From: a virus
Taxonomy: Duplodnaviria; Caudoviricetes
Reading direction: 5' to 3' (one strand)
Virus record (IMG/VR): IMGVR_UViG_3300020403_000019
Location: 1 to 48,818 of that record
Length of the DNA stretch: 48,818 bases
Part shown: positions 13,108 to 13,855 of the stretch, piece after piece
Layout of the letters: every line of letters begins with the position of its first letter
Numbering within the stretch: position 1 is the stretch's first letter
Position numbers and translations under genes: made by a program
The notes under the pieces: generated by a model
What the model saw: the letters and a program-made list of their open reading frames with translations, nothing else
Databases searched by the model: none
Told to the model about the DNA's origin: nothing

Positions 13108-13203
13108 TTAAAATTTATGTAAAAGGAGAATCTCACCATAAATAAATGACATACAAGTAATCATACCAAGGGATGCGATCCCAACTAATTGGAATGCTTC
13201 CAT
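13108..13203 (-). CDS. 31-aa single-pass membrane peptide
   Basis: MEAFQLVGIASLGMITCMSFIYGEILLLHKF; starts 1 nt after the DUF4278 stop. Confidence 0.7.
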   Translation of the reverse strand: MEAFQLVGIASLGMITCMSFIYGEILLLHKF

Positions 13204-13204
13204 A

Positions 13205-13372
13205 TCACTTGTTGTATACGTGCCCGCGGTAGCAATATGTACCGTGGGCTTCTTTATGGTCTGCACAATTTACGTTGTACTCTACGCCGCGATAAGCAGT
13301 GTGAGTAATTTGTGCGTCGTGAAGTGCGGCAGCCTTGCTAAGCTGTCTTTTGATGATGTTAAGTGTGTTCAT
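13205..13372 (-). CDS. DUF4278-family peptide (55 aa)
   Basis: MNTLNIIKRQLSKAAALHDAQITHTAYRGVEYNVNCADHKEAHGTYCYRGHVYNK with two YRGxxY motifs; AGGAG SD at 13384-13380; lies downstream of a glutamine riboswitch motif, as is typical for the family. Confidence 0.85.
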   Translation of the reverse strand: MNTLNIIKRQLSKAAALHDAQITHTAYRGVEYNVNCADHKEAHGTYCYRGHVYNK

Positions 13373-13414
13373 TTGTTTACTCCTGAAGTAGTTGGATTTT
13401 TAGGCCCCGTTCCT

Positions 13415-13582
13415 TCAGTCGTTTGCGTCCCAGTAATGATTACAATGTGGTACAGAATCTTTAATAGTCTCTACCAACTCTAACTTGTACTCTGGCTTCA
13501 AACCCTCATGCTTATGAATCCGAAGGATTACAGCATCAGCGTCTGTACAGGCCATTTGTGCATAGAGTAGTAATTCAATCAT
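13415..13582 (-). CDS. 55-aa hypothetical protein nested in aptamer 2 (MIELLLYAQMACTDADAVILRIHKHEGLKPEYKLELVETIKDSVPHCNHYWDAND)
   Basis: Hand translation; GGAG SD at 13596-13593; the C-terminal WDAND codons are riboswitch core nucleotides. Confidence 0.8.
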   Translation of the reverse strand: MIELLLYAQMACTDADAVILRIHKHEGLKPEYKLELVETIKDSVPHCNHYWDAND

Positions 13583-13617
13583 GGGATGAACGCTCCGTTC
13601 CGCGACTTACTTGCGTC

Positions 13618-13818
13618 TTATGTAAAAGTTCCGCTGCATTCTTCTTCTACTTTAGTCTTCAAGTAACCTATTAGATTACGTTGAGATCTATAGTCTAGAT
13701 TGCTATCCGTGAGGATCTCAACACGACGCTGTAGAAATCTCTCACAACTCATATGCCATCCGTAGGGAGAGCCGTCATTGTGATGAGTTAGGACAAATGC
13801 TAATAGAAACTCTAGCAT
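13618..13818 (-). CDS. 66-aa hypothetical protein nested in aptamer 1
   Basis: ORF track; hydrophobic N-terminus and two Cys; start and stop codons both lie in the P2 stem. Confidence 0.8.
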   Translation of the reverse strand: MLEFLLAFVLTHHNDGSPYGWHMSCERFLQRRVEILTDSNLDYRSQRNLIGYLKTKVEEECSGTFT

Positions 13819-13831
13819 AAGATGAACGAAA

Positions 13832-13855
13832 GAAATGTATAAAATGTTACATTTC
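13832..13855. promoter_or_regulatory. NtcA-type binding site (GTA-N8-TAC)
   Basis: GAAATGTA-TAAAATGT-TACATTTC: perfect 8-bp arms containing TGTA-N8-TACA, immediately upstream of the riboswitch. Confidence 0.75.

Follow-up and report, generated by a model that had tools for sequence, protein, structure and literature searches.

Nested rather than tandem: a two-core glutamine-riboswitch element with a probably circularly permuted inner unit in a cyanophage

Two units resembling glnA RNA, the glutamine-I riboswitch, lie one after the other on the minus strand of the window (the whole 48,818-nt stretch of viral DNA that was analyzed), and they appear to be interlocked through one P3 helix. The question is whether they are tandem aptamers joined by a pseudoknot or a single fold, in which an outer classical aptamer has its P3 capped by a second, circularly permuted one. 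Both options came from a sequence-only reading of the locus, every coordinate of which proved right on the minus strand; the minus-strand sequence also bore out its statement that neither unit has a P3 of its own. The element occupies 13828-13370 on the minus strand and leads into a DUF4278-like ORF (Table 1).

The minus-strand gene order is HNH gene, ORF1 (66 aa), ORF2 (55 aa), and DUF4278-like ORF (55 aa), and in S-TIM5 the counterparts of the last three are all annotated as hypothetical proteins. When region 13200-13850 was used as the query, 439 records of the phage collection matched, all of them named Synechococcus, Prochlorococcus, Cyanophage, or Marine. The best matches were S-TIM5 and its kin (82% across the entire query), and by these matches the source virus is a cyanophage and a relative of S-TIM5.

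Table 1. Parts of the two-unit element and its surroundings, in window coordinates. Nucleotide numbers such as C1 or G41 are those of the glutamine-II structure paper (PMC6698751).
Feature	Position	Strand	Basis or remark
Outer P1, 5′ strand (C1-C5)	13824..13828	minus	Sequence; covaries with 13412-13408 in homologs
P2a	13616..13822	minus	7-bp stem, 13822-13816 with 13622-13616, enclosing ORF1; pair probabilities 0.68-1.0 (five pairs tested); covariation in compact homologs
ORF1, 66 aa	13618..13818	minus	Start codon in P2a 5′ arm, stop codon in 3′ arm
Outer junction strand CGC-A with G18 (13614) and C19 (13613), and E-loop strand AGUA (13611-13608)	13608..13615	minus	Agrees with RF01739 consensus in compact homologs; C19 covaries with 13407
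Shared P3, 5′ strand AGUCG	13603..13607	minus	Length and sequence covary with 13421-13417
Inner core, circularly permuted	13588..13602	minus	C-G35 at 13602-13601; P1 hairpin GAACG-GAG-CGUUC, 13600-13596 with 13592-13588
Inner P1 loop GAG; first base is G41 (13595)		minus	G-C/C-G/A-U compensatory changes inside the hairpin
GGAG, which may be the ORF2 ribosome site	13596-13593	minus	Overlaps inner P1 hairpin loop
P2b	13428..13586	minus	Stem 13586-13582 with 13432-13428, enclosing most of ORF2; pair probabilities 0.58-0.97; covariation in homologs
ORF2, 55 aa	13415..13582	minus	Starts in P2b; crosses inner junction and P3 3′ strand; UGA 13417-13415
Inner junction strand CGC-AAA with G18 (13426) and C19 (13425)	13422..13427	minus	In place of an E-loop; linker AAA in 345/396 and ACA in 44/396 listed elements
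Shared P3, 3′ strand CGACU	13417..13421	minus	Covariation
E-loop partner GAA (13416-13414), G35 (13413), outer P1 3′ strand (13412-13408), and G41 (13407)	13407..13416	minus
Predicted OFF-state hairpin	13383..13418	minus	13418-13413 with 13388-13383
Downstream DUF4278-like ORF, 55 aa, two YRG motifs	13205..13372	minus	Likely the regulated gene

Homologs were gathered by pattern scans (six viral, one genome, and one metagenome), several of which were variant-targeted, with one base fixed and its partner left free. At least 609 junction matches were parsed; 60 without a findable flanking partner were dropped, and the rest collapsed to at least 396 distinct full two-unit elements, window and S-TIM5 included (the listed elements). 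All homolog counts refer to sequences, not to independent events. Rfam found no glutamine-riboswitch match in the window, with its long inserts, at any threshold tried and nothing at the gathering level, the lone hit being a chance snoRNA match (E 2.1). Among seven compact homologs, five matched RF01739 at 38-44 bits (cut-off 35) and were aligned as a single outer aptamer, the inner unit being treated as an insertion in the P3 loop. A pattern search of the source genome itself returned no compact copy of the element. No stand-alone permuted aptamer was present among 119 hairpin-only loci (82 lay within an outer unit, and the other 37 are apparently chance matches), and no triple or extra units were present among the loci examined.

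The shared P3 was described by the sequence-only reading as the perfect complement AGUCG/CGACU. The complement occurs once in 13602-13407, against approximately 0.14 copies expected from composition; by itself, a 5-bp complement is weak evidence, and it is the homologs that make it non-random. The description held in conservation and covariation alike, with P3 strands of equal length in 385 of the 396 listed elements (5 bp in 200, 6 bp in 11, and 8 bp in 174) and with compensatory changes. All 200 five-bp helices were fully paired, 187 of them as in the window, 5 with a G-C to A-U double change, and 8 with G-U. The 6-bp and 8-bp classes had more double changes, mostly with one or two internal mismatches retained; 3 elements of the 6-bp class had a perfect helix of different sequence. 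The 8-bp helices began with A-U or G-C, ended with U-A, A-U, or G-C, and mostly kept two conserved A-C mismatches between the end pairs. The linkers at the inner end of P3 were constant (CG in 395/396 and AAA or ACA in 389/396 listed elements).

The P1 strands of the two units are identical in the window, so variants alone can separate nesting from a tandem arrangement. At P1 pair 5:36, 78 of the 396 listed elements fitted the nested model only, none the tandem model only, 318 both, and none neither; at the pocket pair 19:41, the corresponding numbers were 131, 0, 247, and 18. An outer classical glnA aptamer with its P3 capped by a permuted unit therefore agreed with all 78 informative homologs at 5:36 and with 131 of the 149 elements failing at least one model at 19:41 (the other 18 fitted neither model), whereas tandem aptamers with a pseudoknot agreed with 0 of 78 and 0 of 149. 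The pairs fitting neither model were 15 inner and 3 outer breaks, the inner ones partly reflecting a scan that selected on that position. P1 pair 4:37 was invariant in the 396 listed elements and thus uninformative.

The changes themselves followed the same pattern. When the 3′ strand of unit-1 P1 changed, the unit-2 5′ strand, 3-6 nt away, changed too; when the unit-1 5′ strand changed, so did the unit-2 3′ strand. Among the listed elements, the outer 19:41 pair (unit-1 position 19 with unit-2 position 41) was C-G, or G-C in 102, and the inner pair was C-G, with G-C in 27 and U-A in 2. Inner and outer pairs varied independently: an inner G-C occurred beside an outer C-G or U-A, and an outer U-A beside an inner C-G or G-C. 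At least six different compensatory double substitutions were observed, all nested. In the hairpin-only scan, in which neither side of the outer 19:41 pair was fixed, G19 occurred with C41 in 12 of the 27 distinct elements first seen there. The inner G-C variant of P1 required 15 changes on a tree of 143 ORF-bearing 5-bp elements, and a single clade was rejected (p-AU 1e-30); the sequences are short, and recombination may inflate the number of changes.

In 44 compact elements, hand-picked from 92 to include variants, the nested structure paired 99.7% of cells and contained 10 doubly changed pairs, a number reached by 1 of 500 shuffles. The tandem structure had 94.9% of cells paired and 7 doubly changed pairs, and 428 of 500 shuffles were as high; its 19:41 pairs were 48-50% paired. 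RNAalifold chose both nested P1 helices unprompted. Covariation thus shows the nested P1 pairings, the shared P3, and a long-range 19:41 pair in each core, and the nested topology is almost certainly the correct fold. The sequence-only reading had set covariation across homologs as a check, and both P1 5:36 and 19:41 decided it for nesting.

Thermodynamic folding gave a different picture. In the window, ViennaRNA gave the OFF fold a 9.6 kcal/mol advantage over the nested one, with a probability of 0.64 for P1 pairing within unit 1 versus 0.32 for the inner hairpin and 0 for P3 and outer P1. In the 92 compact elements, the inner hairpin reached a mean of 0.75 versus 0.03 for P1 within unit 1, and P3 reached 0.01; RNAalifold did not predict P3. 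The scoring of both programs leaves out E-loops, triples, and ligand. Because the folding programs miss P3, the nested fold would depend on tertiary contacts and ligand.

Conserved C1, G2, C39, and G40 are present in P1 of the outer core, which also has a three-way junction and the E-loop AGUA/GAA followed by P3; these features make the outer unit a classical glutamine-I aptamer. In 69 of 245 homologs among the matches listed, the first base of the E-loop partner was A, not G. In the inner core, the junction AAA/ACA faces C, P1 has its 3′ strand ahead of its 5′ strand, and there is no E-loop. The inner core carries C1 (13592), G2, G18, C19, G35, C39 (13597), G40, and G41, pocket residues that include glutamine-contacting or triple-forming ones in both solved classes (PMC6698751). 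Although not a standard RF01739 member, the inner core likely functions as a glutamine-I core does, and by analogy with the solved glutamine-I and glutamine-II structures each core would bind one glutamine.

A 195-codon frame was observed inside the inner P1 hairpin loop of two elements (L263:701-1320 and L288), and shorter remnants were seen in L066 and L103. Recognized by eye, the 195-codon insert is presumably a GIY-YIG homing endonuclease. With such inserts in the hairpin loop, the permutation point tolerates insertions.

Judged by profile matches, both P2 loops hold real small ORFs, on which the sequence-only reading was silent, as it was on the hairpin over the downstream ribosome site. 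ORF1 matched phrog_6471 (E 1e-35), with a 66-codon CDS annotated at the same place in S-TIM5, and ORF2 matched phrog_504 (E 2e-24). The starts of the nested ORFs lie within the 5′ arm of P2. Among the 396 listed elements, P2a was long in 68, P2b in 275, and both in 41. The GGAG inner loop accompanied ORF2 in the 5-bp class (130/177 listed elements versus 0/10 without ORF2). BLASTP gave no alignment between ORF1 and ORF2, and their profiles matched weakly (probability 43%, E 2.5e-4); in the ESM Atlas, ORF2 fell in unnamed clusters only. One ORF family was found in either P2 loop (L435 versus L069, 90% identical), which suggests an exchange of cargo between the loops. A 22-nt hairpin also occurs in either P2 loop of different elements (L006, L048, L054, L410, and L422), in line with such exchange. 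Contigs from RNA libraries (four runs from at most three samples and two studies) cover the conserved cores and ORF2, their strand, start, and level not being readable. The stems of the window span 150-200 nt of coding sequence, and their folding in vivo is not assured.

The predicted OFF hairpin had a pair probability of 1.0 in the free ensemble (ViennaRNA) and extends as far as the 5′ edge of GGAG 13383-13380, before the downstream start. It was fully paired in 219 of 241 listed homologs, and the A in the E-loop strand faced U in 64 of 65 (kinship uncorrected). The hairpin would exclude the aptamer because it uses the P3 end and the E-loop strand. The downstream ORF matched Pfam PF14105 below the cut-off (E 8.7e-4; 20.1 bits versus 25.3) and phrog_545 with E 1.5e-31; the YRG motif was present in 316 of 327 readable downstream ORFs among the matches listed. 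A second small ORF of 52 aa (13098-12940, minus strand; phrog_6192, with a faint phrog_5049 match) also carries a YRG motif, lies 3′ of the DUF4278-like gene, and ends before a terminator-like hairpin near 12937-12910.

Folding and covariation point to the following switch. Without glutamine, the P3 end and the E-loop strand would pair with the downstream ribosome site (OFF); with glutamine, the nested fold would form and free this site (ON). A similar model, in which the hairpin is melted in the ON state, has been proposed for gifB (PMC6212724), and the pocket residues and the single-aptamer ON-switch model are described in PMC6698751 and PMC6212724. From covariation, folding, and the solved structures, we consider it probable that the element has two binding pockets and exerts translational ON control over the DUF4278-like gene. 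By position, the bound fold would also bury the start regions of ORF1 and ORF2, and ribosomes on these ORFs would pull the fold apart, so that the RNA would select either the nested ORFs or the downstream gene.

Upstream of the element, two further sequence features were observed. A GTA-N8-TAC palindrome (13850-13837, minus strand) lies 9 nt from the aptamer in the window; S-TIM5 has it too, as do 58 of 386 homologs among the matches listed. The palindrome has the NtcA consensus given in PMC6212724 and could be a candidate NtcA repressor site, as at the host gifB. In homologs such as L001-L119, the 32 nt before P1 hold an inverted repeat. Its arms, variable in sequence, were at least 5 bp long in 306 of 386 listed elements versus 109 after shuffling; a TATAAT-like box is often at its center, with the box end 7-9 nt before C1 in 250 of the 386. 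The repeat is possibly a DNA hairpin promoter or operator.

Three other explanations were weighed against this switch. A pair of ordinary aptamers in tandem, with separate P1 helices and either joined by a loop-loop pseudoknot or acting independently, is permitted by the identical P1 strands of the window and is favored by the pairing within unit 1 in the free ensemble. Such a pair also agrees with how such loci have been catalogued: 157 glutamine doublets were counted as pseudo-cooperative and independently working, tandems with an intervening ORF being excluded (PMC9481103), and where tandem glnA RNAs were noted, such half-units form separate rows without P3 in the original alignment (PMC2864571). 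However, a tandem arrangement would place C-C and G-G mismatches in both pockets or in both P1 helices, and no informative homolog agrees with it at either position. The length of P3 ranges from 5 to 8 bp between linkers of constant length, a variation that a loop-loop helix would probably not accommodate well. Nor are the units two complete self-folding riboswitches with platforms of their own, since the P1, P3, and 19:41 pairs run across units. The tandem-pseudoknot model was rejected, and tandem aptamers of either kind are exceedingly improbable.

The other two explanations accept the nested fold, at least in part. The inner core might be a ligand-free scaffold that stabilizes P3, like the "ghost" aptamer of glycine riboswitches, leaving one glutamine and no cooperativity; the missing E-loop, the inner position of 15 of the 18 broken 19:41 pairs (15/396 listed elements, more often than in the outer core), and the change of inner C19 to A in 2 of 114 listed elements are in its favor. 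We consider it unlikely, because the inner pocket letters were kept where the pattern left them free (C1, G2, and the G35-G41 strand in 83/86 listed elements; C1-A6 and C17-C19 in 107/114), because the compensatory changes at the inner 19:41 pair were of two kinds, and because glutamine-II binds without an E-loop (PMC6698751). Less probable again is that, in long forms such as the one in the window, ribosomes translating ORF1 and ORF2 prevent the aptamers from folding and the downstream gene is under translational coupling, a ribosome stopping at 13417-13415 melting the OFF hairpin, so that the aptamers work in compact phages only. The ORF2 stop indeed lies inside the 5′ arm of the OFF hairpin, at the P3/E-loop border, at the same position in 195 of 205 listed homologs with a long P2b loop, and ViennaRNA does not form the nested fold. 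Yet the compensatory changes in P1 occurred mostly in ORF-bearing elements (the inner G-C swap in 55 of 143 ORF-bearing 5-bp elements), and the P2 arms remain complementary around unrelated cargo; pairing is thus still under selection in the long forms. For the preferred reading, a nested fold with two pockets, true cooperativity between the pockets is possible but doubtful. Still somewhat less likely is the fullest version of this reading, a strand-swapped dimer with two P3-coupled, cooperative pockets, one of them permuted, that would act as a sharp cyanophage nitrogen switch choosing between stem-held small genes and a downstream IF17-like regulator of the host's glutamine synthetase.

Comparison with known systems placed the element between classes. 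Like glutamine-I in the gifB/IF17 leader of Synechocystis (glnA RNA, RF01739; PMC6212724), the outer core has P1, P2, an E-loop, P3, and a long-range pair, and the element is followed by a putatively DUF4278-like ORF whose ribosome site is covered by a hairpin. Unlike glutamine-I, its P3 is capped not by a loop but by a second, permuted core without an E-loop, both P2 loops carry ORFs, and the element is phage-borne. It shares with pseudo-cooperative tandem glutamine riboswitches two glnA-like units in a row, but here the units swap strands, cannot fold apart as glnA aptamers, and share a single expression platform. Glutamine-II (Downstream-peptide, RF01704) has the same pocket nucleotides and a C19:G41 pair, binds without an E-loop, formed a strand-exchanged dimer in the crystal, and also functions when split into two pieces (PMC6698751). 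In its bound fold, a second helix stacks right after G41 (PMC6698751), whereas the sole comparable helix here takes up E-loop strand nucleotides and competes against aptamer formation. A glutamine-II reading of unit 2 was rejected, since the helix overlaps the P3/E-loop strand, pairs 19 nt downstream with the ribosome site, and would behave as an anti-aptamer; the RF01704 cut-off was reached by one of the seven compact homologs, with the pseudoknot helix broken.

In glycine riboswitches, the aptamers follow one another and dock through tertiary contacts; they are not known to be nested by circular permutation. Dual-aptamer glycine, c-di-AMP, and guanidine-II riboswitches (Table 1 of PMC9481103) likewise have two predicted sites for the same ligand and one expression platform but are unrelated to this element in sequence. 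Matches to glnA in phages appear in PMC9964418 and PMC9004378, and the 99-nt S-CREM1 match is as long as a compact nested element. The available parts of PMC12379486, PMC9971707, PMC12452182, and PMC5393176 held nothing on tandem glutamine riboswitches. In full-text literature searches, judged by the listings and the openings of abstracts, no paper described a glutamine riboswitch that was nested or permuted.

The element likely arose when one aptamer was tandemly duplicated and the P3 strands were then swapped, each copy losing one half of the E-loop. If the duplicated aptamer had a short P3 hairpin, a hairpin-to-duplex swap would give identical 8-mers; the same near-self-complementary 8-mer was present on both P3 strands in 77 of the 396 listed elements, which fits a strand-swap origin.

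The junction pattern occurred in 1 of 401 cyanobacterial assemblies, and RF01739 matches occurred in 24 of 151; the lone cyanobacterial occurrence, on a 194-kb contig, is likely phage. Of the 17 matches in the genome collection, 11 were real. Five of these were translated; we take four, by eye, to have T4-like phage-type flanking genes, and the fifth gave a single uninformative ORF. Matches in cellular assemblies (L512, L514, L515, L522, and L528), some of them non-cyanobacterial, lay mostly among T4-like phage-type genes, and the cellular-assembly matches are probably phage contigs in bins.

Many catalogued tandem glutamine riboswitches therefore likely need rereading as one interlocked fold, not two independent switches, and this fold makes true cooperativity a direct experiment, for which the compact natural versions of approximately 80-100 nt are ready constructs (ITC and crystallography). 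The inner core would be a natural circularly permuted aptamer and offers a candidate route, from duplication to strand swap, for two-site riboswitches. With 439 matching cyanophage records and long forms that Rfam misses, nitrogen sensing by cyanophages is likely undercounted.
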